Shown piece by piece: positions 1 to 45,038 of a DNA stretch of 55,444 nt. Source of the stretch: a virus. Lineage: Duplodnaviria > Caudoviricetes. Each line of letters starts with the position of its first letter. Position 1 is the stretch's first letter. The translations under genes and the position numbers were made by a program. The notes under the pieces are model-generated. The model was given only the letters and a program-made list of their open reading frames with translations. It ran no database searches and was not told the DNA's origin. Location: IMG/VR virus record IMGVR_UViG_3300014848_000022, positions 1 through 55,444 of that record; one strand, written 5' to 3'.

Positions 1-285
1 CTACCACTTCGAGATAATGGCACATCCCTTGATCAGCGCCAGCGCCTTGTCGAGTGCCGCCCGCAGCCGCAGGTCGACCGCCGCCAGAACGCCAGCGTCG
101 TGCGCGGCATCGCCAGTCAATTGGTCGCCCACGCGCGCGGGCACGGCGGGCACGTCGGCCGGATCGATACAGGCCACGGAGACCGGCGTGAGAACCTTTT
201 CGACCCGCACATCAATGATCGGAGGCGGCGTCTTGCTAGCGCAAGCACCCAGGAGAAGCGGTAGCAATACAAACAGTGCTTTCAT
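1..285 (-). CDS. Outer-membrane lipoprotein spanin (Rz1-like)
   Basis: Signal peptide with lipobox LLGAC, Pro-rich mature part, located in the lysis cassette downstream of the i-spanin. Confidence 0.75.
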   Translation of the reverse strand: MKALFVLLPLLLGACASKTPPPIIDVRVEKVLTPVSVACIDPADVPAVPARVGDQLTGDAAHDAGVLAAVDLRLRAALDKALALIKGCAIISKW

Positions 286-287
286 TT

Positions 288-911
288 TTACCGCCCCTTA
301 TTGATTGATTCCTCGGCAGACAACTTTGTACTTAAAAGTCTGCGTCGTATCGTATTTACATGTAATCCACTGATTTCAGCTAATTCTGGTATGGTAATTT
401 GGCGACCTTGATATGAGAAGTATCTTGTTTTGCGCTGATTGCGGCATTGAGTTTTTCGGTCGACCCAGCGGCAGTTTCCCGCCTCATAACCTCTATCGTT
501 ATCAATGCGATCTAACTCAAGATTGTCAGCGTAACCGTTATTCGTCGCCCATTGATGAAAAGCAGAATAATCATCCCACTCCTCACTAAAATTTATCCCG
601 CGTCCGCCGTAATCCGCAAAATGCTTATCACGTGGATTCCTGCATCGTCCCCGCGCACCAATCCATATCTTGTGAAGCCGTGTTGCGCTTAGGCCATGCT
701 TGAGCATCTGGTCTGCACGGCATGCTAGATCGCATTTCCTGCATTTGGGCAAAGCGCAGTCGCATTTGACCGATTGCGCCATGCGCTCAAAGGGCTCAGA
801 ACCACAGTCGCATTGCCACAGATAAATGCTTCGGTGGTTGACGATCCGCAGAAATTTGAGTGCGACTAGCTTTCCAAAGCGCTGGCCGGTAAGATCAATG
901 AAAGCCGACAT
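288..911 (-). CDS. Free-standing HNH-type homing endonuclease
   Basis: Motifs IDLTGQRFGKL, CDCG, YGGRGI, LELDRIDNDRGYEAGNCRW and a C-terminal HTH-like segment; SD AAGGAG 6 nt upstream of ATG 911; visibly lower GC. Confidence 0.8.
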   Translation of the reverse strand: MSAFIDLTGQRFGKLVALKFLRIVNHRSIYLWQCDCGSEPFERMAQSVKCDCALPKCRKCDLACRADQMLKHGLSATRLHKIWIGARGRCRNPRDKHFADYGGRGINFSEEWDDYSAFHQWATNNGYADNLELDRIDNDRGYEAGNCRWVDRKTQCRNQRKTRYFSYQGRQITIPELAEISGLHVNTIRRRLLSTKLSAEESINKGR

Positions 912-912
912 C

Positions 913-1007
913 GCCATCTCCTTTGGCTTGTTGGTCAGGCTCTGGGAGGCGCGACCAACGCCTTTCAGAGCCGCTGAAATCATAGCTGAATCATGATTTG
1001 TTCTCAA
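913..1007 (-). promoter_or_regulatory. Sigma70-type promoter and structured leader of HNH gene 1
   Basis: TTGAGA(1007-1002)-17 nt-TATGAT(984-979), hairpin 938-972, TGACC, then small hairpin GCCA-AAGGAGA-TGGC. Confidence 0.7.
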
Positions 1008-1481: not shown

Positions 1482-1756
1482 ACCTCACCGCCCGGCAGAT
1501 TGGGCTGGGGCAAGCGCCGCGCAATCGTCGGGAGCAGGAAGGCCAAGAAGCCCACTGCCACCGATGCCACCGGCCTCCATTCCTCGGGCACATAGGCCAC
1601 GATTCGCGGCAGCAGGGTCGGGTCGCTCATGAGGTAGCCGATCAGCAGGCCGCTCACGGCAGCGATCTTGACAGACCACAGGCGCCAGAGGGCGCGCGCT
1701 TCGATCACGGCCTTGCGATAGGCCGGGCTGGCCTTGATTTTGGTCCAGATGCTCAT
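1478..1756 (-). CDS. Putative holin (2 TM)
   Basis: 92 aa with basic N-terminus and two hydrophobic segments, ATGA-coupled between endolysin and spanin. Confidence 0.65.
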   Translation of the reverse strand: MSIWTKIKASPAYRKAVIEARALWRLWSVKIAAVSGLLIGYLMSDPTLLPRIVAYVPEEWRPVASVAVGFLAFLLPTIARRLPQPNLPGGEV

Positions 1757-2451
1757 GCGATGACTCCCATGCTTCGTGCGCGACGGGCAGCAACTTCCGC
1801 CACGCCGATCAGGCCGCCATTGACGGCCCGGCGCAGGCCCGTGAAATCGCCCCGGTCGCAGTAGCTATTGGCCTTCGCGCGGCCCCAGTAGTCGCAGAAG
1901 GCGCGCGCCATCGGCACGGGCTCGCCGCCGTGGATCTGCTCAGAGGTCACCCCGAGCCGATAGAGCAGCAGGTCGTATTCGGCCCGGCCCGTGTGCTGGA
2001 TCAGCCCGCCGCCTCGACTGTTCCAGCCATCATCGTCATCCGTGCCGTTGAGCTGGTTGCCCATGCGGCCGCCATAGACGAAGTTGGCCAGCTCGCGCGG
2101 CTTGCCGACGAAGGCTTGCGCGCTCGCCAGCGTGGGGAATCGCCTGGGCCAAGTGCGCATCATGCCCGCCGCTGAATAGCTCATGTTCTCGGCAAAGCTG
2201 GTGTATCCGCCGGTCTCGTTGCCGGTCTGGGCAAGTGCCTCGGCGAGCCGGGCGCGGGTGTCCACAATGCCTGCCTTGAGAAGTTCCGGGGCCAGGGCGG
2301 CGCCAAGCGCGCGCAGCGCGGCATCGGGCTGGCGCTGGGCCTGATGGGCGAGCAGGGCAGTGCAGGTCTTGCCGCCCCACTGGCCATCGATCGGACCCGG
2401 ATCATAACCCTTGGCGGCCAATGTGGATTGCGTTTTGCGAATGTCGATCAT
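1753..2451 (-). CDS. Endolysin: peptidoglycan-binding domain plus GH19 chitinase-like domain
   Basis: GYDPGPIDGQWG PG-binding motif; QTGNETGG, ANFVYGGRMGN, RGGGLIQHTGR and VNGG GH19 motifs; ATG 2451 overlaps upstream TGA. Confidence 0.88.
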   Translation of the reverse strand: MIDIRKTQSTLAAKGYDPGPIDGQWGGKTCTALLAHQAQRQPDAALRALGAALAPELLKAGIVDTRARLAEALAQTGNETGGYTSFAENMSYSAAGMMRTWPRRFPTLASAQAFVGKPRELANFVYGGRMGNQLNGTDDDDGWNSRGGGLIQHTGRAEYDLLLYRLGVTSEQIHGGEPVPMARAFCDYWGRAKANSYCDRGDFTGLRRAVNGGLIGVAEVAARRARSMGVIA

Positions 2452-2771
2452 GGCGTTTTCTTCCATGGAGACCAGAGAGAGATATCGAGCTTTTCGGCTG
2501 TAGCGATCACCCCTTCGGCCACACCGATACAAGCGAGCCCAGCGATCGCTCCCGCTACCGTCGGAGGAACATCGACAAGAGGGCGCAGGGATTTCGCGAC
2601 GAAAGTGCCGAACAGATAGGCGCCGGACAGGCAAAGCAGGGAGGCGAGGATACGCTGCTTCCAGACCGAGGCCGGGCGCAGATATTCGCGCGCGCCGACG
2701 GCGAATGCGCCACCGCCGATCAGCTGGGCGGCATCATTTCCGATTGCGATCGGATCGCTTGGTACGGGCAT
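2448..2771 (-). CDS. Membrane protein, holin/antiholin candidate
   Basis: 107 aa with 2-3 hydrophobic segments, directly upstream of the endolysin, TGATG coupling. Confidence 0.55.
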   Translation of the reverse strand: MPVPSDPIAIGNDAAQLIGGGAFAVGAREYLRPASVWKQRILASLLCLSGAYLFGTFVAKSLRPLVDVPPTVAGAIAGLACIGVAEGVIATAEKLDISLWSPWKKTP

Positions 2772-3220
2772 CAGAGCGCCACCATGCGTAGTAGGTGCTG
2801 GAGCCGATGAGATAGACGGCCAGCCCAATGATCAATGCTGCGTCCGATGCCATCTGCCACGCCTCCAGCAATCAGGAATTGCGCAGCAGCGGCACAATTT
2901 ATGGCGGCTGCATAGGTCCAGAAACCGATATATCGGTCGCCATCAGCAATGTGCAGGCAGCGCCAGAAGATCATCCCAAGCGAGATCGCAGCGACCATGC
3001 GGTCCCTTGCCCCGCCATGGCAGGCGCGAAGGGCGACGATCATGCAGAGGTCGCAGAGCATCATCATGACCGCCCGATCATTGCCCTGATAGAGCGCGCC
3101 GATGATCCAGGATGAGGCCGTGGATGCGGCGAGGATGGCGATCACCGGTCGCGGCCCCACGCGATGGAAGGCCATCGCCCAGAGCGCGGCATGCGCGGCA
3201 TAGACGATGGCCGTTTCCAT
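2771..3220 (-). CDS. Multi-pass membrane protein
   Basis: Several hydrophobic helices; coupled at both ends; SD GGAG upstream of ATG 3220. Confidence 0.6.
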   Translation of the reverse strand: METAIVYAAHAALWAMAFHRVGPRPVIAILAASTASSWIIGALYQGNDRAVMMMLCDLCMIVALRACHGGARDRMVAAISLGMIFWRCLHIADGDRYIGFWTYAAAINCAAAAQFLIAGGVADGIGRSIDHWAGRLSHRLQHLLRMVAL

Positions 3221-3449: not shown

Positions 3450-4799
3450 TCAGTTAAGCGCGATAGAGCGACGCCCGCGTTCGAGCATGGTCTTCAGGCC
3501 GACGCGAGAACCGGTATCGTTGTATGATTGATCGTATCCGGCCCATGCCGCCCGAAGCGATGCAAGGTCGGAGATTGCGGTCCCGCGCACAGTTCCCCAT
3601 GTTCCAGAGCCGCTCACCAGATACGAGTTCTGGTCGTTGATGCAGCCGCCCGCGTCGCCAGTCGCGCTGTCCCACGAGATCAGCGTGCCGATGGGCGCAT
3701 GAAACCGGCAATTTCGGACAGTGTTGTTCGCGACCTTCGAGTTGTTCTCGACGTTGATGCCGACACGCAGGGCCGGAGAAGTGGCATAGCGGTTATAGAC
3801 ATCCACATCCTCGACAAGGACGTTCTGGCAGGCCTTGAGATACAAACCGGACAAGCACCCGCCATAGACGGTCGCACGGGTGACGCGAACGCCGGTCGCA
3901 TTCTTGATCACGAGGCCCTGACCGTTCGATGTGTTGTTGCCGCCGAAGAATGAGCAGTCGATGACCGTAACGTTCGAGCACCCGGCGCCGATAACGGAAG
4001 CGTGGCCGGTCAACGCGACAGCCTTGACCCGCGTGATGATGCCGGTCGTGGTCTGGCCGGTCGAAGCATCTTCGCCGATCTGCATGCATGTCCCGGCGAC
4101 GGACGAGCCGTAGGCGCACAGGTCAAGTTCGAAGAGCTTGAAATCCAGCACGCCCTTCATGCGGAACGGAAAATAGCCGACGTGGAATTTGCACTGGACG
4201 AATGACAGGTCAGACACGAAACCAAGCTGGCTGTCGAAATTCACGCCAGCGATGGGATACGCCCCGATCTGTCGGATTTCACAGCCCTGCCAGAGGATTT
4301 TGCTGATCGTGTAGGTGCCCCCAGAGCCGGAGTCCCACACGCTCTGCATGGCGGTATTGGTCCCGCCAGATTGGCCGATCACATCCCAGCGGCAGCCGAT
4401 AAACCGGATGTTTGAAGTAGTCGTGTTGAGGAACCGCATGACAGACGTTGCCGTAGCCGAGTTGTTGCGGAACACGATGTTTCTGAACTGGATGAACGAG
4501 CAGGCGCCGACTTGGACCGAATAGTTCCCGCTGGTCCCGGTGATGACGACACTGCCCGGCGCCTGCGGATCGAGTAAGCTGTAATTCGGTTCGGGCTCGA
4601 CGAACACGAAGTTTGCGAAGTTCTGGGTCAGGTAGAGGTAGCCAGAGCCAGAGTTTTCGGCATAGGTTCCCCCTCCCATGTAGATCACATCGCCAGCGGC
4701 TGCCACAGAGAGTGCCTTGACGAGCGTTGCATAGGGCGCGCCGGTTGCACCGGTCCCGGTCGTGTCATTGCCGGTCGTGCGGACGTAAATCTCAGCCAT
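3450..4799 (-). CDS. Right-handed beta-helix (pectin lyase-like) protein, putative tailspike depolymerase
   Basis: N-terminal IYVRTTGNDTTGTG...PYAT motif and repeated NV(T/L)V-type beta-helix rungs. Confidence 0.75.
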   Translation of the reverse strand: MAEIYVRTTGNDTTGTGATGAPYATLVKALSVAAAGDVIYMGGGTYAENSGSGYLYLTQNFANFVFVEPEPNYSLLDPQAPGSVVITGTSGNYSVQVGACSFIQFRNIVFRNNSATATSVMRFLNTTTSNIRFIGCRWDVIGQSGGTNTAMQSVWDSGSGGTYTISKILWQGCEIRQIGAYPIAGVNFDSQLGFVSDLSFVQCKFHVGYFPFRMKGVLDFKLFELDLCAYGSSVAGTCMQIGEDASTGQTTTGIITRVKAVALTGHASVIGAGCSNVTVIDCSFFGGNNTSNGQGLVIKNATGVRVTRATVYGGCLSGLYLKACQNVLVEDVDVYNRYATSPALRVGINVENNSKVANNTVRNCRFHAPIGTLISWDSATGDAGGCINDQNSYLVSGSGTWGTVRGTAISDLASLRAAWAGYDQSYNDTGSRVGLKTMLERGRRSIALN

Positions 4800-19851: not shown

Positions 19852-21381
19852 TCAGGCGGCGGTGGTGCTGGCGATGCTGACGCTCTGGCCGCCTTCCAGG
19901 TTCACCAAGAACAGGGTGATGATCGAGAGATAGGTCACGCGCACGTTGACCTGCTCCTTGCCCAGCGCGACCTGGTCGGACGGGTTGTTGCTGGCGTCGA
20001 GGATCGCGGAAAAGGCCTGCCCGGTCGGGTTGTTCACGTCGCCGATCATGCCGCTCGTCTGCATATTCGACAGAAACGTGGTGATTGCGCCGAGCGCGGT
20101 CTGGCGCTGCGTCGGGGTCTGGAGGCGGCCGACCTGAATGCCCATCGCGGTATTGAGCGTGTAGGCGATGTAGTAGGTCAGGCGCGGGTAATTGTCGCCG
20201 TTGATGACCGGGTTCGAACTGGTGTTCTTGCCGATGCGAGAGCCGAAATAGGCCCCGCCCGGACACGGGTTCGTCACCACATCGATGCCGGCATTCGACA
20301 GGGTTTGCAGGTCGGCCGCCGAATAGACCGCGCTGGCATTCGTCTTCTGCGTGGCGACGATCCCGGAAAGCTGCTTGTTGAGCGCCGACTCCTGCGGGTT
20401 GAGCGCTGACAGGCGCCCGGCCAGAAACGATTGCGGACTGATCAGGCGCGTGACGCCATTGACCGGATCGGCCACATAGCACCAGTCACCGAACAGCAAC
20501 TTGAAGCTGTAGCTGTCGATCCCGGCCGTCGCCTTGGTGGTCACGGCGTTCGCGATCGTGTCGCCGGCCGGTCCGGTGCCGATCATGTAGATGCCCTCGG
20601 ACAGGCCAAACGCCACCTGCGCGGTCCACGAGGTCGAGGCATCGCAATCGGCGAGGAAGGCATTGAGGCAGCCGGTGGCGCGCAGGGCATACATGCCGGT
20701 GCGCGAGGTGCCATCAGTGCCGACCATCTGCGTCGCGGTCACGCCGCTGGCGCCGTCGAGGCCGCCAGAGAGCGTCACCGTGGTGGCGACCGGTGCCGTG
20801 GTGGAGACGCCAGCGGAAGCCACGACCAGCTTCGACGGGCCGCGCAGCGCACTGGCGCCGTTGTTGATGGCGGCGGCGATGGCGACCCACACGGCATTGC
20901 CAGTCAGGCCTGCGGCCAGGTTGTCGAAGGTTTCCGGCGCATAGCCCGGCAAGCTCAGCACCAGCTTCCACGAATTGGCCGCAGTGCCGGCGGAAATCGC
21001 GGCGGTGATCGAGTCGCCCAGCGTGCCGGTATACTTGCCGGTCAGGGTCAGGCCGTTGGTGCCGATCGTTGCGGCAGCGGCGGCATCGGTGCCATCGGTG
21101 ACGCGCACGCCGCGCATGTTGGTCGCGCCGTTCAACGCGGCATAATAGACGGCCGTGGACAGGTCATACTTGCGGTTGCCCATGGCGCCGAACGCCTGCG
21201 CCGCATCGGCATAGGTCGCCAGCGTGACCGGAGAATTGACCGGGCCCCACGAGCCGACGCCGACGATGCCAAGGATGTTGGTCGCGATGCCGTTGATATA
21301 GGTCTGCTGCGGCGGCGTGATCTGGACATAGACGTCGGGCACGGCCGAATTGATCGCGGCCCCCTGCTGGATGACGGGCAT
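19852..21381 (-). CDS. Tail sheath protein
   Basis: PDVYVQ, GIVGVGSWGPVN, LSGGLDG and SALNKQL sheath motifs. Confidence 0.93.
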   Translation of the reverse strand: MPVIQQGAAINSAVPDVYVQITPPQQTYINGIATNILGIVGVGSWGPVNSPVTLATYADAAQAFGAMGNRKYDLSTAVYYAALNGATNMRGVRVTDGTDAAAAATIGTNGLTLTGKYTGTLGDSITAAISAGTAANSWKLVLSLPGYAPETFDNLAAGLTGNAVWVAIAAAINNGASALRGPSKLVVASAGVSTTAPVATTVTLSGGLDGASGVTATQMVGTDGTSRTGMYALRATGCLNAFLADCDASTSWTAQVAFGLSEGIYMIGTGPAGDTIANAVTTKATAGIDSYSFKLLFGDWCYVADPVNGVTRLISPQSFLAGRLSALNPQESALNKQLSGIVATQKTNASAVYSAADLQTLSNAGIDVVTNPCPGGAYFGSRIGKNTSSNPVINGDNYPRLTYYIAYTLNTAMGIQVGRLQTPTQRQTALGAITTFLSNMQTSGMIGDVNNPTGQAFSAILDASNNPSDQVALGKEQVNVRVTYLSIITLFLVNLEGGQSVSIASTTAA

Positions 21382-21408
21382 TCTCTTGCTCCTGCTGGTT
21401 CGGCCGGA

Positions 21409-21573
21409 TCAGGCCTTGGCTTCGCTCGCGTCGGCGGCGGGTTCTTCGGGGGCGGTGGTGGCGACGACGAACCGCGCGGTGTCGTCGGCCAGGATCGCCT
21501 TGATCTGGTTGGCATCGGTGATGACATCGCCGACCGCATGGCCGGCGAATGGCTGGGTGACCGTCAGGGCCAT
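21409..21573 (-). CDS. Small hypothetical protein upstream of sheath
   Basis: SD AAGGA, 54 aa MALTVTQPFAGHAVGDVITD. Confidence 0.6.
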   Translation of the reverse strand: MALTVTQPFAGHAVGDVITDANQIKAILADDTARFVVATTAPEEPAADASEAKA

Positions 21574-21584
21574 GTGCTGTCCTT

Positions 21585-22178
21585 TCAGGGGGTGATGAGG
21601 GCAATCGAGCCGATGGTGGCGCCGTTGACCTGCGCGTCCATTTCCACGGTAGTCTGCGCGATCGGGGTGGCGGTCATGGTTTGCAGCACGCCGTAGTTGA
21701 CGCTCAGCATAACATCGCGCCGGTAGAGGTTGAGCAACTGCTTGTCGTCGACCAACTGGCCGCCGGTCCACGACAGCAGCGCCTGCGTGCCATCTGCCAG
21801 TGTGAGCCGGAACGTATCGGACAGGTGGGCATCGATCGCATCGCCAAGCAGATCGCGGGCGGCGAAGGTGCTGGCCCAGATGCTGATCTGCATCTGCCGG
21901 GTCCGACGCTGGGTTTCGCGCACTGCCTGTGCGGCGCCTGTCTCGACCCAATCCATGTCGGCCTTGGTGATCACCGTCACCCGCTCGCCCTTGAGCGGCC
22001 AGACCGAGACATGCACGGTCCCGGCTTTCAGGTCGGCGTCCAGTGTCTGCTTGTCGGGCCAGCCCACGTAGAACTTCACGACAGCACCGATCAGCGCGAC
22101 GGTGCCATCCGATGCTGGCGCGAACAGCGCGGCGATGTCGTCGGCCACGGCGTTGGCGGCATCGATATAGCTGGCCAT
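21585..22178 (-). CDS. Tail terminator/completion protein
   Basis: Position before sheath; QISIWAST..ARD and YRRD..SVNY pattern. Confidence 0.65.
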   Translation of the reverse strand: MASYIDAANAVADDIAALFAPASDGTVALIGAVVKFYVGWPDKQTLDADLKAGTVHVSVWPLKGERVTVITKADMDWVETGAAQAVRETQRRTRQMQISIWASTFAARDLLGDAIDAHLSDTFRLTLADGTQALLSWTGGQLVDDKQLLNLYRRDVMLSVNYGVLQTMTATPIAQTTVEMDAQVNGATIGSIALITP

Positions 22179-22528
22179 CAGACCTCCAGAAGCGCCACGG
22201 TGAGGCGATATCCCAGGCTGTCCCAGTAGGGCGCGATCACTTGGTAGCGACTACCGAGATCGTCGATCATCACGTCGCCGACCTTGAGCGTGCCATTGGC
22301 CAGTTTGCCGCGGGCGATGAACACCCACCATTCAGGCTGGCGCGCGTCGCTGGGCAGCGCGGCCGGCGCCCGCGCGCCTTCCTTGCGCTCCTGGATGCTG
22401 GCGGGGATGCCCGACGCGATCGGCGTCTCGCTTGTCTGGATCTGGCCGCCATAGCCAATCCGCCCCCCTTGGACCTGTCCGCCGGGCCGATGAAACGCCA
22501 CAGTGCGGGGGTAAAGGAACGATGGCAT
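22178..22528 (-). CDS. Head-closure protein
   Basis: 116 aa beta-rich with LKVGDVMIDDLGSRYQV; TGATG coupling at both ends. Confidence 0.65.
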   Translation of the reverse strand: MPSFLYPRTVAFHRPGGQVQGGRIGYGGQIQTSETPIASGIPASIQERKEGARAPAALPSDARQPEWWVFIARGKLANGTLKVGDVMIDDLGSRYQVIAPYWDSLGYRLTVALLEV

Positions 22529-23448
22529 CAGAAAAACAGCTTCAGCCGGAACTGTTCGAGCAGGTTCTTGGTGTCGCTGTCGAGCCGGTTGTCGCTCCAG
22601 CGCTCGAACTTGGTCCCCCCGGCCTGCACGATCTTCAGGCTGGGCGGCGCGTATTCGTCGGCGCCCGCGTTGATCACGATATTGGCCACAGCCTGCTTGA
22701 GCGTGGTGGGTAGCCCGGCGGCGGGATAGCCCGCGACATAGCGCAGGCAGACATCGGTGTAATAGGCCAGCATCAGCCCGGCCGGCACCCAGACTTCGCC
22801 GGTCACCGGGCGCACATCGGCGCTGCGCACATCGAAGGGCACCCACTGCGGCGGCCCGCCGAACGTCTGCACGGCGGCCAGCAGATTCACGTCATTGTAA
22901 AGGCCCGCTACCTGGTCGCTGCGGCGCCCATAGGCATAGCGACCACAGCCTGACAGCAGGCGCATGACCGGCGCGCGCGACACCCTGGTCTGCGAGCGCT
23001 TGGCGGCCAAGGGGCGTTCCTCGACGATGACCAAGCCCGCTTCGAGCGTGGCGCCGATGCTGTGCGCATTGATCGGGGCGGAAACCGTGATCGTGCCGGC
23101 CTGGGCATTGGTGCCGGTGATCACCAGCGCCTCTACCTTGGCATTGTCGGACCGGTCGACGATAAGCACCTCGCCAATCAGGTTGGACGTGCCCACGCTG
23201 GCCATCGGATAGGCAAACGTTGCTGGCTGCCCAGCCGTCAGCGCGACAGGGAGCGCGGCGGAAAATGTCGGTTGCAGCGAGGCCATGTAGCAGGGGACGC
23301 CCCGGCTGTCGGGCGCCCAGACCAGCCCCTCGGGACGCTGGATATAGCTGTCCACCACGCCGCAGGCGTTGACGATGTCAGATTCCGAGACGTCTGGGCC
23401 AAGGCCATAGGTCGCGTACTCGTCGGGCTGGAGGTAGACGCTGGGCAT
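22528..23448 (-). CDS. Head-tail adaptor/connector
   Basis: N-terminal YLQPDEY...ACGVVDSY and C-terminal YVAGY...LPTTLKQAV...LLEQFR. Confidence 0.7.
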   Translation of the reverse strand: MPSVYLQPDEYATYGLGPDVSESDIVNACGVVDSYIQRPEGLVWAPDSRGVPCYMASLQPTFSAALPVALTAGQPATFAYPMASVGTSNLIGEVLIVDRSDNAKVEALVITGTNAQAGTITVSAPINAHSIGATLEAGLVIVEERPLAAKRSQTRVSRAPVMRLLSGCGRYAYGRRSDQVAGLYNDVNLLAAVQTFGGPPQWVPFDVRSADVRPVTGEVWVPAGLMLAYYTDVCLRYVAGYPAAGLPTTLKQAVANIVINAGADEYAPPSLKIVQAGGTKFERWSDNRLDSDTKNLLEQFRLKLFF

Positions 23449-23451
23449 GGA

Positions 23452-23706
23452 TCAGGCCGCCAAGTCCTTGAAGCCGGGCGGCGTCCAGAGCCGGGTGCGC
23501 TTGGCCTGCCCGGTCTTGATCAGGTAGCGGCCCAAGCTGTCAGGAACCTTGGCCGCGCCGTTGATGAAACAGACCTCGAACGTGATCGGCTCGCCAGATT
23601 CGGTCAGCCAGTCGCTGGCGATCACGCCGCCGGTGAATCTGGGGTCGGCTGCGGGCGCGACGTACATGGTGTGGTTTCGGCGCTCGCCGGGATAGTAGAC
23701 GCGCAT
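23452..23706 (-). CDS. Hypothetical virion-region protein
   Basis: 84 aa, phage-like codon use, between capsid and adaptor. Confidence 0.6.
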   Translation of the reverse strand: MRVYYPGERRNHTMYVAPAADPRFTGGVIASDWLTESGEPITFEVCFINGAAKVPDSLGRYLIKTGQAKRTRLWTPPGFKDLAA

Positions 23707-23717
23707 CAGGATGCCCC

Positions 23718-23750
23718 AAAGAAAAAGGCCGCCCCCCTAAGGAGCGGCCC
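23718..23750 (-). terminator. Rho-independent terminator after capsid/HNH genes
   Basis: GGGCCGCTCC-TTAG-GGGGGCGGCC followed by TTTTTCTTT. Confidence 0.75.
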
Positions 23751-23796
23751 AGGCTGTCGCTTGGCTGAAAGGGAAGGGGATCAGCCGGCGGTGACG

Positions 23797-24501
23797 TCAG
23801 AGCAGAAGACCCTGACGCTGCATAAAATCGATCGGATCGGAAGCGCGCTTGCGGCAATTGCAAGGCTTGCAGGTCCATTGCAGGTTCCTGCGGTCGTTAG
23901 AGCCTCCGCGCGACAGCGGGACAATATGGTCCAGTTCGCCGCCGCCGTTAAGCTTCGTCTTGCAGATTGCGCAGCGATCACGCTGCAATCGTCTGATTTC
24001 TTGAATATCCTCAAAGGTATGCCTTCCGCCGTTGCCGTTTTTCAGCGCCTTGCGGTTGGCAAAATAGGTCTTGTACGCGTCCCGGTTCTTGCGGCGGTAT
24101 TCACGATACCATGCTCGCATAGCTTCGGGGTCTTTGGCGCGGCGCGCTCGGTTCTGCGCGTTCACCAGCTCGCGGTTCGCTTGCCGGTAGACCCGAACGC
24201 GGCGCAAGTCATCCGCGCGCAACGATGGGTCAGCGCGCCACTGCTCTCTAGCGCGACGACAAATTTCGTCTCGGTTTTCAGCCCGGTAAGATCGGACCGC
24301 CGTTCTCGCTCGTTCAAGGTTGGCTGCGCGCCAGTCGGCGGCACGACGTCGGTGCCTTTCCGATTGTTCGGCCCGCTTGGCGGTCATGCAGGCTTTGCAA
24401 TGGGAGCGAGGCGCCTTTCGATCACCCCGACAATAGTACGCGCTATGCGGTTTTTCCGCTCCGCAACTGGCGCAAATCTTGGTAGGCTCAGCGTTAGCCA
24501 T
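23797..24501 (-). CDS. Free-standing HNH endonuclease
   Basis: N-terminal KICASC...HCKAC zinc motif, Arg-rich helix, CAIC...LDHIVPLSRGGSNDRRNLQWTCKPCNCRK. Confidence 0.92.
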   Translation of the reverse strand: MANAEPTKICASCGAEKPHSAYYCRGDRKAPRSHCKACMTAKRAEQSERHRRRAADWRAANLERARTAVRSYRAENRDEICRRAREQWRADPSLRADDLRRVRVYRQANRELVNAQNRARRAKDPEAMRAWYREYRRKNRDAYKTYFANRKALKNGNGGRHTFEDIQEIRRLQRDRCAICKTKLNGGGELDHIVPLSRGGSNDRRNLQWTCKPCNCRKRASDPIDFMQRQGLLL

Positions 24502-24504
24502 CTT

Positions 24505-24595
24505 GCTGGTCCTTCAGCTAGATCGGTTAGAGGCCGGGTTGCGCTGCTAACGCGCCCGGCCTCGCCAATATAGCCGAAAGAACAGCAAAAGTAAA
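24505..24595 (-). promoter_or_regulatory. Sigma70-type promoter and structured leader of HNH gene 2
   Basis: TTTACT(24595-24590)-17 nt-TATATT(24572-24567), hairpin 24530-24563, TAACC, then small hairpin GCTG-AAGGAC-CAGC. Confidence 0.7.
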
Positions 24596-24598
24596 ACG

Positions 24599-25627
24599 TT
24601 AGCCGGCGGTTACCGTGGGGCGGACAACCGCAACAACTGCATGAGCTGCGTCGGCTCGTTTCGCAACAATGGCGCTGAAATGGATTCCCACATACTGGCC
24701 CTGCAAGCCAGCCAGCAGGCCAAGCTGGAAGATGCGCGGCTTGAGGTTGCCGTCGCCCCCATGAACCACCGGGCGCTCGATCATCTTCTCGGTCATGATG
24801 ACCGCGAAATAATTCGAGTTGCCCGAGCCGGGCGCCGAGAAGCCATAGCTGGCGTCGGTGGTGGCGGGAAGGAACGGGTCGGGGATCAGCGGCAGGTCGC
24901 CCGCCTGCGTGCTGATGTATTTCACCGTGACGCCCGCCGTCACCTCGGCGGTACGCAGGTCGATGTGCGCGGCCTTGGCTTCACGGTCGATCAGGTCGTT
25001 CAGGATCGGGTTGATATAAATCGCGGTCGGGCGAACGGCCTGCGTGGTGTTGGCCAGCATGGCCGCGACCTTGGCCTTGATGCCGTCGATGATCGAAGCG
25101 CCCAGGCCAATCGTAGCCTGGTTGGTGATCTGGGTCAGCAGCCCGCAGAAGCTCTGCGTCGAGCTGTCGGTGATCGCCGTGGCCGTGCCGCTCCAGACCG
25201 CCGCCGCTTCGGTGATCGTGATACCCGACACGATGTCTTCGATGTCCTTGGATTCGACGTAGGAGAACTGGCCCTGCATGCGGGTAACGTCCACATCGAA
25301 CAGGCCGAAATTGGTCTGCGCGGTGACGGCCTTGATGTAGACCGAGCGCTCGGTGCGGGTCGGGCCCGACGCGGAGGGCGAGATCGAGCGCGGATCGGTG
25401 AACGTACCGGTCGCGATCGCGGTCTGGTCGAAGAAGCGGTGCGGGTGGCCGGTCGCCTGGGTTTCCGGGTTGCGGGAGAGGAAGATCGATTCGCGACGAA
25501 CGATATCGACGATTTCGGTTTCATACCGGTTCACCTCGATCGCGCCATTGCCGAGATAATCGGCGGCGGCCTTGAGCGAGATGAACTGAGCTTCGCTGAC
25601 GCGGTCGCCAGTGGCTGCAATGTTCAT
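24599..25627 (-). CDS. Major capsid protein
   Basis: 342 aa after protease/scaffold, strong codon bias, GVTVKYISTQAGDLPLIPDPF HK97-like C-terminal pattern. Confidence 0.85.
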   Translation of the reverse strand: MNIAATGDRVSEAQFISLKAAADYLGNGAIEVNRYETEIVDIVRRESIFLSRNPETQATGHPHRFFDQTAIATGTFTDPRSISPSASGPTRTERSVYIKAVTAQTNFGLFDVDVTRMQGQFSYVESKDIEDIVSGITITEAAAVWSGTATAITDSSTQSFCGLLTQITNQATIGLGASIIDGIKAKVAAMLANTTQAVRPTAIYINPILNDLIDREAKAAHIDLRTAEVTAGVTVKYISTQAGDLPLIPDPFLPATTDASYGFSAPGSGNSNYFAVIMTEKMIERPVVHGGDGNLKPRIFQLGLLAGLQGQYVGIHFSAIVAKRADAAHAVVAVVRPTVTAG

Positions 25628-25655
25628 GGTCTTGGGTCCTTTCTGGCGAACTGGA

Positions 25656-27059
25656 TCAGTCGATCAGGCCGTTGCGGGCCATCTCGGTCTTCATCTGGAT
25701 GCGCTGCTGCATGGACAGGCCGGAGGCGCGCAGGGCTTCGTCCAGCTTGGCCACAGGCATCTTCTCGCCGTCACCCGGCGCCGCGATGTTGGCCTTGGCC
25801 ATCAGCGCGCTGATTTGCGGCGAGAGCGTCTTGCGCTGCGGCTCGGGCGAGGTATCGCGCTTGGCGGCCTGGATACCTTCCAGCTTGGTCGAAAGATCGC
25901 CGATCTGGGCCTTGAGCGCGGCAACTTCCGGGCTTTCGGTCGGCGCCGTCGCACCGCCATCACCCTTCTCGGCGCCGGCGTAGAATCCGCCGTTCCAGTC
26001 GTGGTCGCGATAGATATGCGGCAGCGTTCCGGCCATGGCCTCGGCCTCCATGTTGTCGGCCATGCGATTCAGCACGGCGACATGGCCGCGCGTCGAATGA
26101 ACGCCGATACCGGCAGCCTGCATGGACGCGGCGCAGGCGCGCAGGGTATCTGCATGCGGCGCGACCTTGGCGTGCAGCTCCTTGCCGGCCTCGATCTTGC
26201 TGCCCAGTTCGTTGTGGCTGGCCTCGACCTTGTCGAGGCGTTCGGTCACGGGCTTGAGCGCGGCGGCCAGCACCGCTTCCAGTTCTTCCTTGGTCATGGG
26301 GAAATCCTCGATTGCTGCCGGGGCATTTTCAGCCGATGCGGCGAGCGACGTGGTGGTGTAGGCGGCCTTGTCCTTGAGTAGGATTGCGGCGCCAGTGAAC
26401 ACGCAGGCGGTGATGACCAAGGGGTCCGATTCAAGGTCTTCAACAAGGATTTGTTGCGCTTCAAAACTGAAGCCCAGGGCGTTCTTGTTGGCCTTGATCT
26501 CGGCGGCTTCCTCGGGGAAGTCGGCTGCGTAAATGAAGCCTTCAATCCGCAGATCGGAGCCTTCGACGGTGGCGCCGGTGATGACGCCGATCTTCGCGCG
26601 GACATCGTGCCCGTCGAAATTGGGGGTATAGTCAACGGCCATCAGGGCCAAACTGTCGAGCGCGGCCTCGGCCGCCTCAGCGGTCAGCAGCACGCGCTTT
26701 CCGCCCGAACCGTGTGGCGCATTGTCCGAAGGAATGCCGACCCGCGTCAGCACGCCAGAGAACGGCATGCGGTTGGGGTGGTCCTGCACGTCCGGGACCA
26801 CCAGCGCCATGGCATCGATGCGCATGGCGCTGATCTTTTCCCAATCGGTCGTATCCATGCCCAGTTCATGGGCTCGGCGAATGATGCGTCGGCGCGCCTC
26901 AGCCCTTTCTTCGACGGTCAACCCCTGCGTGCGCGAAAGCTGCGACCATGCGAGGCGGGTGTGCCGTTCGTCAGGCATGGGAAGCTTGCGCTTGCCCGGC
27001 ACTGCGAATTGTTCGCTGGGCAGGGCCTCGCGCTGCTCCTTGGTCAGTGGCGCCGTCAT
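25656..27059 (-). CDS. Prohead protease/scaffold fusion
   Basis: N-terminal REALPSEQFAVP domain, protease-like H...GFSFE...FTGAAIL region, coiled-coil C-terminus; start MTAPL. Confidence 0.75.
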   Translation of the reverse strand: MTAPLTKEQREALPSEQFAVPGKRKLPMPDERHTRLAWSQLSRTQGLTVEERAEARRRIIRRAHELGMDTTDWEKISAMRIDAMALVVPDVQDHPNRMPFSGVLTRVGIPSDNAPHGSGGKRVLLTAEAAEAALDSLALMAVDYTPNFDGHDVRAKIGVITGATVEGSDLRIEGFIYAADFPEEAAEIKANKNALGFSFEAQQILVEDLESDPLVITACVFTGAAILLKDKAAYTTTSLAASAENAPAAIEDFPMTKEELEAVLAAALKPVTERLDKVEASHNELGSKIEAGKELHAKVAPHADTLRACAASMQAAGIGVHSTRGHVAVLNRMADNMEAEAMAGTLPHIYRDHDWNGGFYAGAEKGDGGATAPTESPEVAALKAQIGDLSTKLEGIQAAKRDTSPEPQRKTLSPQISALMAKANIAAPGDGEKMPVAKLDEALRASGLSMQQRIQMKTEMARNGLID

Positions 27060-27072
27060 TGCTGGATGAGCC

Positions 27073-27576
27073 TCAGAGGTGCGAGCGGGCGAAGGCGAGG
27101 GCGGCACCAAGCTCGCCCTCCACTTCACCTTCCAGGCCGCGCACAAAGTCCTTGAACTCGTGCCAGCGCAGCGCAAGCTGGGAGACCAAACTTTCATGCG
27201 GGCGCGGCGGCGCCACACTGATGGCGTCGGGATCAGCCGGGGCATCCGCCAGCGCCACGGTGATCGAGCCGCCCGCTGTCAGCAGTTCGCTGTCGGCTTC
27301 GGAGCCATCCACGGCGGGATTGCTGGAGGGGGGGGCTCCCGGCGCATCGCTGGGAGCGCCTTCAGCGGCCTTGGCGGCAGCGGCTGCGCCCTCCGGATGC
27401 CCGGAGATTGCCGCCCCAAGCGCGGCGATCGCACCCTTGCGGTTCGGGCCAGCCTGCTCCGCTTCGAGTGCGGCGTTCAGGGTGTCGAGGTCGACGCCGT
27501 CAAGGTGGGCTGCGAGAAGAGCCACGGGCATGGCGACGAGAGCGGCGGCATCCGCCTGGATGGTTTCCTCGCTCAT
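27073..27576 (-). CDS. Ala-rich hypothetical protein
   Basis: ATGA-coupled within the head operon; LEAEQAGPNRKGAI motif. Confidence 0.6.
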   Translation of the reverse strand: MSEETIQADAAALVAMPVALLAAHLDGVDLDTLNAALEAEQAGPNRKGAIAALGAAISGHPEGAAAAAKAAEGAPSDAPGAPPSSNPAVDGSEADSELLTAGGSITVALADAPADPDAISVAPPRPHESLVSQLALRWHEFKDFVRGLEGEVEGELGAALAFARSHL

Positions 27577-27881
27577 GCGAACACCAGCACGTCAATGGTG
27601 CCGGCAGCCAGCGTGTTGCCGGCGAGGCGCGGCGCGATGTTGATGGTGAAGCCGGTCTGCGAACGCCCACTGATCCACACGGTGGCGTCCTGACTGGGCG
27701 TCACCTGCACACCATAGGAGGCGGGCAGCTCGAGCCCGGTCAGCGCCACGGTGACGGCTGCGCCAGCGCTGCCGCCGGCGGCATTCGCGAGCTGCTTCTT
27801 CATCAGGAGGATGAGACGGTCTTCCTGCGCAGGGCCATCGCCCTTGCTGGAGACGGCGACGGTATGGAGATCCTTGGCCAT
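27573..27881 (-). CDS. Hypothetical beta-rich protein (possible head decoration)
   Basis: 102 aa, SD AAGGA, after portal. Confidence 0.55.
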   Translation of the reverse strand: MAKDLHTVAVSSKGDGPAQEDRLILLMKKQLANAAGGSAGAAVTVALTGLELPASYGVQVTPSQDATVWISGRSQTGFTINIAPRLAGNTLAAGTIDVLVFA

Positions 27882-27883
27882 GG

Positions 27884-29233
27884 TCAGTCCTTGGTCTGGT
27901 CGGCGGCATCGCGCCGGAGGGCGGGTTTGTCGTCGGGCACTGCGGGGTCGAGCACGCGCTTGCTGCCCGTTGCGGCGGCGCGGGCGATTTCAGCTTCGGT
28001 CGAGGTGAGGTTTGAGAACGGCGTGTTCAGCGGCGGCCGACCGCGCGTCTCACGGTATTCGTCCGGCGTGATCGCGTTGGCCTTGTATTCGATCGCATAG
28101 ACCTCGGCCGTGCGCTTTTCGTCTTCGCGATCAAGGCCGATGAAGCGGAACTCCAGCTGCCAGAATCCAAGGCGGCGGTGGAGCGCATGGCGCGTCAGAT
28201 AGGCCGCCAGTTCCTTGGCTCGTGGCTTGATCGCCTGATCCCAGTCCCGTTCTTGCGCTACCTCGCCGGTACTGCGGTTCACATCGCGCTCGATACCCAG
28301 GTTCTGCGGGCTCAGATCAAAGGCGGTGGCAATTTCAGATTTCAGAAAATCCTGATATTTCAGATAGAGCGCGCTGTCGCCTTCCGGGTACAGCCTGTGC
28401 ACATTGCTGCCCTTGGTGCCCGTGATAGGCACCTTGCCTTGTCCTTCGACCTCGGCGGTCCAGTAATTGCGGAAGGCGGCGACGGTCTTCTCGTCCGTGC
28501 CTTCGCCCAGATCGAGCATGATTCCGGGCCGGGCGTTGCTGGTCAGGTTCCCGGCGAACTCGCCGACGCCCAGCTGGCGCGCGATCGAGGTGAATGCCAC
28601 CTCAAGGGGCCCCAGGCCAAAAGGGCTGGCCGTGGTCGGATTGGGCCGGATATAGATCAGCTCATCGTCGCGCAGATCGATCCTGATCCCGCCGCCGGTA
28701 TACGCCCCATAGCCCACCGACTGCGCGTAGCGCGCCTCATCGGGTTTTCCAGACCATCCGGGATAGACCTGGATCGAAAGGCCATCTGCGGCATAGAGCC
28801 AGAGCGGGCGGAGCGGATCCCCCGACATCTGCGTTTCGATCGCGCCGGCGCCAACGAGGATGTCTTCGATCACCTGCTCAGCCAAGCTGCGCCAGGCGTC
28901 ATCGGCATTCGGGTTCTTGAGGCAATAGGTCGCAATTTCGGCTTGCCGCTGCAACTCGCGGCTTTCCTTCACACCCGGCGCCGGGACGATTTCCCAATCC
29001 AGTTCGACGATCGGGTTCTTGATCGCGTTGATCGCCCGGCGGGCATAGGGCGTCTGAGCGAAATAGCGCAGGTTGCGCGGCGTGGCCTTCCAGACCAGAC
29101 GTGATCCTGTGTGCCCTTGCCCCATAGGTGCGTAGTTCGGGAACGGATTGGTGTCGCGCTTGGGCTGCGCCGGGCGTCGCCCGAAACGAGCGCGCTTGAG
29201 GCCTTCAGCAAGGATCGAGCCGAACGAGGCCAT
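27884..29233 (-). CDS. Portal protein
   Basis: FGLGPLE, IATAFDLSPQNLG and ITPDEYRETRGRPP motifs; follows TerL. Confidence 0.92.
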   Translation of the reverse strand: MASFGSILAEGLKRARFGRRPAQPKRDTNPFPNYAPMGQGHTGSRLVWKATPRNLRYFAQTPYARRAINAIKNPIVELDWEIVPAPGVKESRELQRQAEIATYCLKNPNADDAWRSLAEQVIEDILVGAGAIETQMSGDPLRPLWLYAADGLSIQVYPGWSGKPDEARYAQSVGYGAYTGGGIRIDLRDDELIYIRPNPTTASPFGLGPLEVAFTSIARQLGVGEFAGNLTSNARPGIMLDLGEGTDEKTVAAFRNYWTAEVEGQGKVPITGTKGSNVHRLYPEGDSALYLKYQDFLKSEIATAFDLSPQNLGIERDVNRSTGEVAQERDWDQAIKPRAKELAAYLTRHALHRRLGFWQLEFRFIGLDREDEKRTAEVYAIEYKANAITPDEYRETRGRPPLNTPFSNLTSTEAEIARAAATGSKRVLDPAVPDDKPALRRDAADQTKD

Positions 29234-29234
29234 G

Positions 29235-30611
29235 TCAGGCGAACACGAACTTGTGGCCCTGCGGCGTGATCAATTCGCCAAACGCGCGCGACAAGGCGTC
29301 GACCTGGTCGTCATGGCGTCCGTTGGGGAACATTCGCATTTCCTCTACAAGCTGGCTGTTCCACGATCCGCGCAGCATCAGCACATTTCCGACGTTAACT
29401 TGGGCCGCGAACGGCTCGGCCCTCGTTTCCTTGCTTCCCGAGTCCGGAGACGTCTTGAAATTGAACCCGGCCAGCAGGCGCCCATGATGCGTGGCCAATG
29501 TTTTTCCGGCCTGACCGGGATCCTGCGGCAGACTGATTTTGACCATGGCGCTGTCGCGGTGCGCAGTATTCAGGATCATGGCGTCGCGTTCATCAGCGCC
29601 GAGGCGGTCGCGCACCATGTCGCCGATGATAAGGCGCCCGTCCTCCATCTGCCCGAGCAGGCCGCCAGCAGTGAAGTCTCCGTTGGTCGTCGCTGCCAAG
29701 TCCCACCCGCGCACCCAGGTAATCCTCTGCGCTGGAACGGCATCGACGATGCGGATGAAGTCTGGCTTGAATAGGCCGCCCTCGGCAGGCGACGGAGCCT
29801 GCATATACTGCCCGGCAAACACATAGGGCAGCGCGCGCTCCATGCGTCGCAGTTCGGTAATCGTGTGCTTCTCCGGCCACAGCGCATTGCCTTCCGGCGT
29901 GATTGCCGCCAGGCACAGGTGCTCCCATTCTTCGCCGGTTCCGCCGCCCAGCAGCCACCCAGCAAGGTCTTCCTCGTGCAGTCGCTGCATGATCAGGATG
30001 ATCGGCGTCCTGCGGCTGTTCACGCGGGATTGCAGCGTGTGCTGATACCAATCGATCACTGACTGGCGCATCACATCGGACCGGGCCTCATCGGCCTTGT
30101 GCGGGTCGTCGATCACGATGGCCCCGCCGAAGCCTTCACGCTCCTTCCCGGCGCCGAAACCGGTCAGGGTTCCTCCTGCGCCGGTGGAATACATCACGCC
30201 ACCAGCATCGGTTTTCCAATGACTGCGGGCCGTACTGTCGAGGCGCGTCCCCGGAAAGATCGCTTGATATTCGGCGCTCTCCACGATCCGCAGCACGCCA
30301 GCGCTATTGTTCGCAGCCAGCAGGCCAGAATAGCTGGCGTGAATGAACTCTGCGTCGGCAGCCTTGCCCAGACACCATGCAATCCACATCACTACCGCCA
30401 GTTCGGTCTTGGAGTACCGGGGCGGGATATTGATAATGAGGCGAGTGGTGCGCCCCTCAAAAACATCCGTCAGCTTCCGGCAGATTGCGGCATGATGGTC
30501 AGCGCGAAGCCATTTTCCGCCGGTGCGCTGAAAGAACATCCAGCGGGCAAAGAAATAGAAATCAGAAGCGGCGAGCAGACGCGCCGCTGCCACTTCCTGC
30601 GGGCTCATCAA
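29235..30611 (-). CDS. terL: Terminase large subunit
   Basis: Walker A INIPPRYSKT, Walker B IVIDDPHK, nuclease WDLA and HDDQVDA. Confidence 0.96.
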   Translation of the reverse strand: MMSPQEVAAARLLAASDFYFFARWMFFQRTGGKWLRADHHAAICRKLTDVFEGRTTRLIINIPPRYSKTELAVVMWIAWCLGKAADAEFIHASYSGLLAANNSAGVLRIVESAEYQAIFPGTRLDSTARSHWKTDAGGVMYSTGAGGTLTGFGAGKEREGFGGAIVIDDPHKADEARSDVMRQSVIDWYQHTLQSRVNSRRTPIILIMQRLHEEDLAGWLLGGGTGEEWEHLCLAAITPEGNALWPEKHTITELRRMERALPYVFAGQYMQAPSPAEGGLFKPDFIRIVDAVPAQRITWVRGWDLAATTNGDFTAGGLLGQMEDGRLIIGDMVRDRLGADERDAMILNTAHRDSAMVKISLPQDPGQAGKTLATHHGRLLAGFNFKTSPDSGSKETRAEPFAAQVNVGNVLMLRGSWNSQLVEEMRMFPNGRHDDQVDALSRAFGELITPQGHKFVFA

Positions 30612-44455: not shown

Positions 44456-45038
44456 CAACGAACTGATTGTGCCCGCTATCAAAGGCATGAATTCCGATAT
44501 GACCTGCCGCGGCTTCCAGTTCGAGCCCGGGAAGGCCTACGAGCACACCGGTACGGTGCAGGCCTGTGGAAGTGGCTTTCATGCCTGCCCTACTGATCAG
44601 CACCCGCTTTCTGTGTTTGGGTACTACGCCCCGGCAGGTTCTCGCTTTTTCGAAGTCACCGTCAGCGGGAAAACCAGCGTCCAGGGAGACAAGATCGCAG
44701 CAGCTCGGATTACCATTGGTGTTGAGATCACGATCTCCGATCTGGTCAAGCGCGCGTGGGACTGGGTGTGGGCCCGCTGCACGTTGGAAGATGGCAGCAG
44801 CGCGACCGGCACTCAGGGCGCGGCCAGCGCGACCGGCTATCAGGGCGCGGCCAGCGCGACCGGCTATCAGGGCCGCGCCTCCGGAAAGACCGGAAATGCC
44901 CTGTTCGCAGTCGAGCGTGAGCCATATCCATCCTACAAGATCATGTCGGTAGCCTGCGGTATCGTGGGGCAGGACGGCATCGAGCCTGATCGCTGGTACG
45001 CATGTCGCGATGGTAAGCTGGTCGAGGTGGCGGAATGA
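44448..45038 (+). CDS. Conserved phage protein with 9-aa repeats
   Basis: KG..DMTCRGFQFE.G...CGSGFHAC N-terminus, SATGYQGAA repeats, GIEPDRWY C-terminus. Confidence 0.75.
   Translation: MSDNELIVPAIKGMNSDMTCRGFQFEPGKAYEHTGTVQACGSGFHACPTDQHPLSVFGYYAPAGSRFFEVTVSGKTSVQGDKIAAARITIGVEITISDLVKRAWDWVWARCTLEDGSSATGTQGAASATGYQGAASATGYQGRASGKTGNALFAVEREPYPSYKIMSVACGIVGQDGIEPDRWYACRDGKLVEVAE
44798..44873 (+). repeat. 27-bp coding tandem repeat, about 2.8 copies
   Basis: CAGCGCGACCGGC(ACT/TAT)CAGGGCGCGGC units starting 44798, 44825 and 44852. Confidence 0.9.

Follow-up and report, generated by a model that had tools for sequence, protein, structure and literature searches.

Two HNH endonuclease genes of a provirus are headed by a conserved, covarying module predicted to encode a RepX-like antisense RNA

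The closest described relatives of the element reported here are antisense RNAs of plasmids. RepX, the 74/75-nt countertranscript of the IncQ plasmids R1162/RSF1010, acts on the gene of the RepA helicase, and in the excerpts of El Mouali et al. (PMC8136791) the RNA of Rfam family RF00043 ("R1162-like plasmid antisense RNA") is named RepX and presented as a FinO ligand that is structurally FinP-like; excerpts of PMC8136791 and PMC9977716 describe it as a structural mimic of FinP. A table in the excerpted part of PMC12361487 lists IncQ under "No iteron or antisense system", at odds with PMC8136791, and we preferred the latter as the primary study. FinP itself, which targets traJ in F-like plasmids with FinO as its chaperone, is a small cis-antisense RNA of ~75-79 nt that covers the ribosome-binding site (RBS) of its target and is made up of a pair of stem-loops, a short spacer and a 3' tail. 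Here we analyse a provirus record of 55,444 bp (IMG/VR record IMGVR_UViG_3300014848_000022, Caudoviricetes; GC content 63%, late genes on the minus strand), called the window throughout, in which two genes for HNH endonucleases, HNH1 and HNH2, stand behind similar leaders. Each of them is probably headed by a portable control module of ~110 bp encoding a countertranscript of the RepX/FinP type that limits translation of the nuclease. Judged by its sequence, the module would join the RNA design of RepX to a new genetic role and to a spread far wider than that of the IncQ family.

The likeness to RepX covers the whole element. RepX and the predicted RNA share an AGCCAU start, a stem-loop I with an anti-Shine-Dalgarno (anti-SD) loop, the linker GGUGGUUAG and a long stem-loop II; both have a -10 hexamer TAGGCT 10 nt before CAT, and in both the two stem-loops and the short linker run antisense over RBS and start codon, with boundaries equal to those of the 75-position Rfam model. 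In pRSF1010 the repA leader consists of a hairpin, CTAACCACC, the SD and ATGGCT, and AGCCTA at +14..19 is antisense TAGGCT, as in copy 2 of the window. A covariance model (CM), R2, made from 39 sequences with none from RSF1010, finds pRSF1010 (L313) at 2819-2903(+) with 47.8 bits (E 3.1e-9; next 10.7 bits), the same place where RF00043 scores 98.5 bits as a positive control. Conversely, RF00043 is the best sub-threshold Rfam match to copy 1, with 28.2 bits over the whole 75-position model vs a cut-off of 55, and one of the four records searched with it gave any match. At pRSF1010 2820-2894 the match of RF00043 is to the sense strand of repA; the Rfam model is thus in mRNA orientation, the reverse complement of the RepX described in the literature, and for this reason it matched the HNH1-sense strand. 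The systems differ in the apex of stem-loop II, which is GCG-CKRCYAA-CGC in the module and GGGG-UCACUAC-CCCC in RSF1010, and in the regulated gene, homing-type nucleases in phage here and, for RepX, a plasmid replicon's repA helicase, so that the IncQ hallmark of copy-number control is not shared. Furthermore, in RSF1010 the upstream gene F takes its stop codon from CUAACC (UAA), whereas no consistent upstream open reading frame (ORF) ends there in the module family; CTRACC as an upstream stop codon was rejected, the open frames before TRA measuring 1-85 codons without pattern. FinP, compared by description, has the spacer GACA as quoted in the excerpted paper, whereas the module has GGUYAG.

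A first-pass annotation of the window, made from the letters alone, had proposed that two different HNH genes share a promoter and a two-hairpin RNA leader. Both HNH leaders and all features it named sit on the minus strand, and the shared order of parts was found again in both copies (Table 1): a promoter-like site, a GC-rich hairpin with apex GCGTTRGYMGCGC, CTRACC, a hairpin with the SD, and the HNH gene. Its 17-bp-spaced promoters were recovered as promoter-like sites before both genes, the SD lies in the hairpin loop as described (GCCA-aaggaga-TGGC in copy 1, GCTG-aaggac-CAGC in copy 2), and the nucleases do differ in architecture, HNH2 being a Pfam HNH_5 protein and HNH1 matching PHROG 374 with no Pfam match. 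TRACC is present 3' of the stem in both copies, but "directly 3'" was inexact, the motif really being C-U-R-A-C-C(-A-C) and its distance from the apex a fixed 9-12 nt. The window alone is thin evidence for a shared element. Alignment of the two leaders with MAFFT revealed little likeness beyond the apex, the apex pattern with <=1 mismatch has four matches in the window against 1.9 expected (12 of 100 shuffles reach four), and promoter-like sites number 8 against ~11 expected from shuffles. On the mRNA strand the leaders fold with z-scores of -3.1 (copy 1) and -3.8 (copy 2), hairpin 1 alone with -3.8 and -3.6. The similarity exceeds chance because many copies with the same architecture, different stems and kept pairing exist outside the window.

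These copies were collected with sequence patterns and with the CM. Viral contigs, scanned whole with GCGTTRGYMGCGCN{9,12}CTRACC, yielded 25 stretches, among them six (five distinct sequences) with the full architecture, i.e. an AT-rich -10-like hexamer, a lower stem of differing sequence, the apex, CTRACC, an SD and ATGGCT. With the same pattern extended by N{17,33}ATGGC, metagenome contigs yielded 33 stretches, of which 24 had the architecture (18 new distinct sequences), two were weak and seven lacked it. Together with the two window copies this gave 25 distinct sequences, later 39 aligned members, from viral contigs, metagenomes and alphaproteobacterial genomes; L288/L303 (26.5 bits) was left out of the count. 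The first viral pattern, N{4,14}TRACC, had returned at least 117 stretches, mostly chance matches in coding regions, and the CM applied to 100 of these loci added one further member at another site (L114, 51.6 bits). The pattern of the viral scan hit at least 120 stretches in genome contigs, mostly GC-rich coding DNA; a stem filter, which was too strict, flagged 17, none convincing, and the CM run on 100 of the stretches found two members, L200 (64.6 bits) and L257 (39 bits). L200, a metagenome-assembled genome titled Bryobacteraceae and labelled Acidobacteriota, and the metagenome contig L281 carry the same module with an integrase element, and if the binning of L200 is right the family may reach beyond Alphaproteobacteria.

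The model used for wider searches, R1, was built in antisense orientation from the 25 sequences and RSF1010. It finds two copies only in the window, both before HNH genes, the next best match reaching 12.2 bits. R1 also finds members with other apical loops, out of reach of the patterns; the apex is therefore a sub-family trait, and the constant core of the element is AGCCAU, the anti-SD loop, UGGUYAG and the long stem-loop II. The linker UGGUYAG is the most conserved stretch of the family (alignments A4 and A7, CM consensus). Hits were obtained in four of five related or member virus records and, in three phage relatives, lie before small accessory ORFs of the late region with TTGACA-17 or TTGACG-17 promoters. 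Moreover, six of 151 sampled alphaproteobacterial genomes contained hits, ten in total at E <= 0.001.

Covariation, which the first-pass annotation had suspected from two copies, was borne out by the outside copies, in which the stems vary and pairing is kept. Across 27 aligned rows 94.3% of the cells of stem-loop II are paired vs 67.0% in shuffles, 11 of 14 pairs are changed on both sides, and the covariation score of 0.688 vs 0.189 is reached by none of 500 shuffles, with 36-56% of cells paired in slid controls. With 39 rows the values are 95.4% vs 65% in shuffles, 13 of 14 double-changed pairs and a score of 0.772 vs 0.218. The strand opposite the mRNA keeps the structure better, which points to selection acting there. 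In 19 of 25 members the antisense fold of stem-loop II is the more stable one (difference up to 15.6 kcal/mol); it is a continuous 12-15-bp helix capped by a loop of 7 nt, and where the mRNA strand has "internal loops" it has G.U pairs. Such pairs account for 33 of 334 in stem-loop II on the antisense strand vs 4 of 303 on the sense strand, and for 32 of 178 vs 5 of 146 in stem-loop I, which is more stable on the antisense strand in 20 of 26 cases. In the window, stem-loop II has -26.7 kcal/mol on the plus strand vs -22.4 on the mRNA strand in copy 1, where the "internal loop" turns into two G.U pairs and one A-U pair, and -26.2 vs -24.5 in copy 2. An H-type pseudoknot or switch between the loop and the 3' flank was also considered and rejected: the R of the loop and the R of CTRACC agreed in four sequences and were uncorrelated in 25, and the GUURG/CURAC complementarity was imposed by the search pattern.

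Of 42 sequences anchored on the complement of the start codon, 22 have a hexamer TAnnnT at precisely 10 nt upstream of CAT; the other offsets from 0 to 44 are each used by 0-3. The hexamer falls in codons 5-7 of the downstream gene, and because it occupies these codons unrelated proteins begin with M-A-x-x-x-x-T/S. The hexamer of copy 1 is 13 nt instead of 10 nt from CAT because one extra codon stands between ATG and GCT. The G.U asymmetry and the fixed antisense -10 together make it most likely that the "leader hairpins" mirror a small countertranscript on the other strand. In the proposed arrangement, the minus strand of the module would supply a sigma-70-type promoter, the leader, the RBS and the first ~7 codons (ATG GCT ...), and the plus strand a predicted countertranscript of ~70 nt, driven from the -10 hexamer within codons 5-7. 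This RNA would start near AGCCAU and run back over start codon and SD, forming stem-loop I with the anti-SD CUCC in its loop, then the conserved single-stranded linker UGGUYAG (the complement of TRACC) and finally the 12-15-bp stem-loop II, at or just past which it would probably terminate. With the position-fixed -10-like hexamer as support for a transcript, we infer that the antisense RNA is made, where its ends lie and that it represses translation: by pairing with the mRNA leader it would block or limit synthesis of the nuclease, as RepX does with repA and FinP with traJ. As a further step, late read-through transcription of the capsid or lysis operon might exceed the antisense RNA and titrate it away; the nuclease would then appear late in infection and stay off in the lysogen.

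Genes behind the module were characterised through 29 downstream ORFs (two of the window, 22 from the patterns, five from related proviruses). Ten encode HNH endonucleases by Pfam or PHROG, namely HNH1 and HNH2 of the window and those of L077, L155, L294, L145, L283, L299, L310 and L305; the ORF of L300, cut before the HNH domain, is not counted among them, and the cut ORF of L156 is GIY-YIG-like (18.8 bits vs a cut-off of 22.6). Tyrosine integrases follow the module in L306 and in L281 (= L200), a resolvase in L287 and a small terminase subunit, after a weak hit, in L319, the remaining ORFs being small or unknown proteins. Among the ten chromosomal CM hits, L320 precedes a GIY-YIG/NUMOD3 nuclease (34.5 bits). 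Homing-type nucleases are thus strongly represented and not the sole cargo, judged by raw counts among these ORFs. Four of the ten chromosomal hits, in the alphaproteobacterial genomes L323, L327, L324 and L328, have behind them no more than an ORF of 21-25 codons (MADSENTRTA..., MADSFIIKIP...), possibly a leader peptide, a decayed gene or the result of a frameshift. At L319 1501-1561 (G005:33123-33183), ahead of the gene for the small terminase subunit (Terminase_2, 2.5e-33), a weak match of 14 bits has AGCCAU, a loop with CUCC and UGGUCA but a short stem-loop II; it may be a degenerate or distant member of the family.

Both HNH genes of the window are inserted cassettes. Their GC content is 47.9% (HNH1) and 59% (HNH2), and their third-position GC is 47% and 64% vs 74-83% in neighbouring genes. 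Two contigs of 39 kb and 28 kb (metagenome runs X6 and X7) have nearly identical flanks in which 23796 is joined to 24687, 890 nt being skipped with 72 other letters between, and run X2 carries the HNH2 cassette without a difference. An HNH gene after the capsid gene was found in none of 12 viral contigs encoding a capsid protein at 66-90% identity; there the terminator hairpin and the next gene follow directly. The HNH2 insert is flanked by an imperfect 16-17-nt repeat of the end of the capsid gene, and as 72 + 16 = 88 it is read as three parts, a recoded copy of that gene's final 88 nt, the module and HNH2. Such a layout would be typical of homing with co-conversion, and the insert looks like the product of homing with a recoded, possibly cleavage-resistant target. 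The original capsid-gene end of 16-17 nt (CGTCACCGCCGGCTGA) stays after HNH2 (window 23781-24686). At the HNH1 site none of four relatives has an HNH gene; instead, the gene of a 150-aa membrane protein overlaps a lipoprotein gene (MRRVILALLGLAAFALAGC...), and the two look like a spanin pair. In the window the lipoprotein gene is interrupted after MRRMILAL at ~1005, within the -35 hexamer of copy 1, and restarts at 285, where the signal peptide is another one (MKALFVLLPLLLGAC) and the SD lies within the end of HNH1. A 12-codon remnant of this putative o-spanin lipoprotein gene (MRRMILALENKS) is found at 1028-990, split off by HNH1.

Relatives without the HNH genes also lack the module at both insertion sites, and the module thus belongs to and travels with the inserted cassettes, which have two marks of homing cassettes, an HNH nuclease domain and presence or absence at the same site in relatives. 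Searches of 50,697 phage records with blastn gave no match to either region, and tblastn gave distant HNH relatives only (<60% identity). In the viral contigs of distant HNH relatives (L002-L008), no shared upstream leader was seen by eye and no CM match was obtained in six of the seven (all but L007). In L145, at ~3700-4600, an HNH1-like cassette has a terminator hairpin and then CTGGAGAAAAC(C)ATG on both sides, which suggests that the intergenic region of the target was duplicated at insertion. The homing endonuclease genes I-TevI and mobE of T-even-type phages are reportedly controlled at translation by cis hairpins that sequester the RBS and by phage-timed promoters. Like the HNH cassettes they are selfish nuclease genes in phage operons with promoters of their own and RNA structures at the RBS, but their hairpins are said to act in cis in the mRNA, in contrast to the dedicated countertranscript predicted here. 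Phage morons are autonomous promoter-gene-terminator units inserted between phage genes. The HNH genes resemble them as insertions absent from relatives with atypical GC content and promoter-like sites of their own, and with a terminator after HNH2, but morons are not known to be defined by a shared antisense-RNA module, and the HNH2 insert adds the recoded target-gene end typical of homing.

Several results weigh against a countertranscript. None of the listed runs holding window 20001-30000 is recorded as RNA. Neither antisense promoter passes the sigma-70 consensus scan, a good -35 being missing, and no conserved antisense -35 is visible in the anchored sequences. The window copies have no U-rich tract after stem-loop II, their tails reading GCUGAAAUCA and GCCAAUAUAG. 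FinO, the chaperone of the FinP system, has no cognate gene here, since no ProQ/FinO-domain protein was detected in the 55-kb window (PF04352, E up to 1). The kinship with RepX is qualified by an RF00043 score below the gathering value for copy 1 and by the lack of any match for copy 2 (E up to 10) and in the records of three other members, as well as by the presence of RSF1010 in the seed of R1, the model with which the rows of R2 were aligned. Since the patterns that recovered most members fix the apex, CTRACC and, in metagenomes, ATGGC, the conservation of those letters comes partly from the search; pairing, in turn, is favoured in A5 and A7 by the fitting of these alignments to the model structure. 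Finally, mirror hairpins exist on the mRNA strand and may act on their own. A leader working in the sense strand, with a 5' hairpin and an SD hairpin that set how stable or how well translated the mRNA is, and with no functional antisense RNA, would agree with the promoter-like sites directly upstream of both hairpins, with the enrichment of a sense-strand -10 (TAnnnT), present in 16 of 39 members at 3-9 nt before the hairpin, which would place the hairpin at the very 5' end of the mRNA, with the mRNA-strand z-scores and with the SD in a hairpin loop in most members; the repA mRNA, too, is said in the excerpts of PMC8136791 to form mirror stem-loops. We consider this explanation unlikely, as the G.U bias of both stem-loops favours the other strand, the position-fixed TAnnnT in codons 5-7 of unrelated proteins is left unexplained, and the loop/3'-flank pseudoknot suggested by four sequences failed in 25.

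Two further explanations were weighed. Stem-loop II, a GC-rich hairpin of 12-15 bp, might be a terminator or insulator that guards the cassette against transcription of the surrounding phage genes, whichever way it runs, or a protective hairpin at the end, the promoter-like hexamers being incidental AT-rich patches; the cassettes do lie within highly transcribed late operons, and the family tails are moderately T-rich (4.0 T on average in the first 10 bases, CM consensus tail GcUuuuuuua). This is quite improbable, given that a terminator scan lists neither window hairpin on either strand, that HNH2 is already followed by the canonical terminator of its locus, and that the linker UGGUYAG, AGCCAU, the anti-SD hairpin at fixed spacing and the fixed antisense hexamer would be left unexplained. 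A signal at the level of DNA, i.e. a recognition site of the homing endonuclease, a recombination site or another mobility sequence, is suggested by the position of the element at the upstream edge of two inserted cassettes and before integrase and recombinase genes. Its probability is very small. Stems that vary freely with pairing kept and G.U pairs on one strand only are the mark of an RNA rather than of DNA bound by a protein; the HNH2 insertion has its left boundary within the capsid gene, a further 88 nt upstream, and not at the element; and the empty sites of relatives bear no trace of the element. Of the two functions offered by the first-pass annotation, the cis-regulatory RNA survives as a conserved covarying RNA element that travels with cassettes and is better conserved on the opposite strand, and nothing points to the DNA-level mobility signal. 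Its class of endonuclease cassettes was too narrow, as the element is common to both HNH cassettes and many others but also precedes integrases, a serine recombinase and small unknown ORFs. The check it proposed, a covariance model and a search for homologues, uncovered many further covarying copies. It could assign the element to no named RNA family and had regarded a match to a described Rfam motif as removing novelty; at gathering thresholds Rfam matches neither copy, the sole match in the window being a tRNA at 54852-54924, but a described relative exists in RepX/RF00043 of IncQ plasmids, which lowers the novelty while the RF00043 cut-off is not reached.

In a full-text literature search (main texts, supplements excluded), none of the papers listed describes an antisense module of the RepX kind ahead of genes for homing endonucleases or integrases. 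Should the antisense RNA be real, RepX, so far an IncQ peculiarity, would belong to a far larger family of countertranscript modules, the free-standing homing endonucleases of phages would have their genes under the control of a dedicated antisense RNA, and the unit would be portable with its antisense promoter written into the first codons of the gene it controls. Selfish nuclease genes may thus be throttled the way plasmids throttle replication. Tentatively, and with more doubt than confidence, we extend the predicted countertranscript module to a mobile "gene-taming" unit, in which promoter, antisense RNA gene, RBS and the first seven codons, forcing M-A-x-x-x-x-T/S onto unrelated proteins, would be recombined before selfish or risky genes (HNH/GIY-YIG homing nucleases, integrases, recombinases, IncQ repA) in phages, in plasmids and in the chromosomes of at least two phyla. 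In phages it would set a threshold, the nuclease being translated only once late read-through transcription exceeds the antisense RNA, so that homing would occur late and the lysogen be safe. Furthermore, the covariance model is usable to find such cassettes, and possibly new RNA ligands of the FinO/ProQ type, in phage and metagenome data.

Table 1. Positions of the module parts and of neighbouring features in the window (ctRNA, countertranscript).
Feature	Position	Strand	Remarks
Copy 1, promoter-like site TTGAGA-17-TATGAT	1007..979	-	10/12 matches; -35 straddles left cassette junction
Copy 1, hairpin on mRNA strand	972..938	-	apex GCGTTGGTCGCGC, then TGACC
Copy 1, start codon ATG	911	-	
Copy 1, predicted ctRNA region, antisense to HNH1 5' end	903..982	+	CM R1 64.5 bits, E 4e-13, full model
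Copy 1, antisense -10-like hexamer TAAGAT	890..895	+	read from sequence; 13 nt before CAT, family value 10
Copy 1, stem-loop I GCCA-UCUCCUU-UGGC, anti-SD loop	913..927	+	folding; mirror of SD hairpin
Copy 1, linker UUGUUGGUCA(G)	928..937	+	complement of TGACC; alignments A4, A7 and CM consensus
Copy 1, stem-loop II, continuous 14-bp helix GGCUCUGGGAGGCG / CGCCUUUCAGAGCC, 7-nt loop CGACCAA	938..972	+	folding
HNH1 gene, 207 aa	288..911	-	PHROG 374 "HNH endonuclease" 1.2e-49; no Pfam match
Copy 2, promoter-like site TTTACT-17-TATATT	24595..24567	-	9/12 matches
Copy 2, hairpin on mRNA strand	24563..24530	-	apex GCGTTAGCAGCGC, then TAACC
Copy 2, start codon ATG	24501	-	
Copy 2, predicted ctRNA region, antisense to HNH2 5' end	24493..24573	+	CM R1 56.3 bits, E 3e-11
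Copy 2, antisense -10-like hexamer TAGGCT	24483..24488	+	10 nt before CAT (24499-24501)
Copy 2, stem-loop I GCUG-GUCCUU-CAGC	24505..24518	+	folding
Copy 2, linker GGUUAG	24525..24530	+	alignment A4, CM consensus
Copy 2, stem-loop II, 13 bp, one bulged U, loop CUGCUAA	24530..24563	+	folding
HNH2 gene, 234 aa	23797..24501	-	Pfam HNH_5 3.9e-11, HNH 3.7e-8
HNH2 insertion vs near-identical phages	23797..24686	-	recoded last 88 nt of capsid gene + module + HNH2 ORF
Terminator-like hairpin with T tract	23726..23750	-	capsid gene's own terminator (same context as L009), now downstream of HNH2
Late gene, portal		-	Phage_portal, 1.4e-37
Late gene, capsid-like protein	24599-25627	-	
Late gene, endolysin	1753-2634	-	

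Two minor features of the window were also recorded. The tRNA gene at 54852-54924 lies on the minus strand near the right end of the provirus record and is a possible integration site. At 44818-44857 two copies of GCGCTGGCCGCGC, 27 nt apart, come near the apex motif and lie outside any module, scoring 5.6 bits each with R1.

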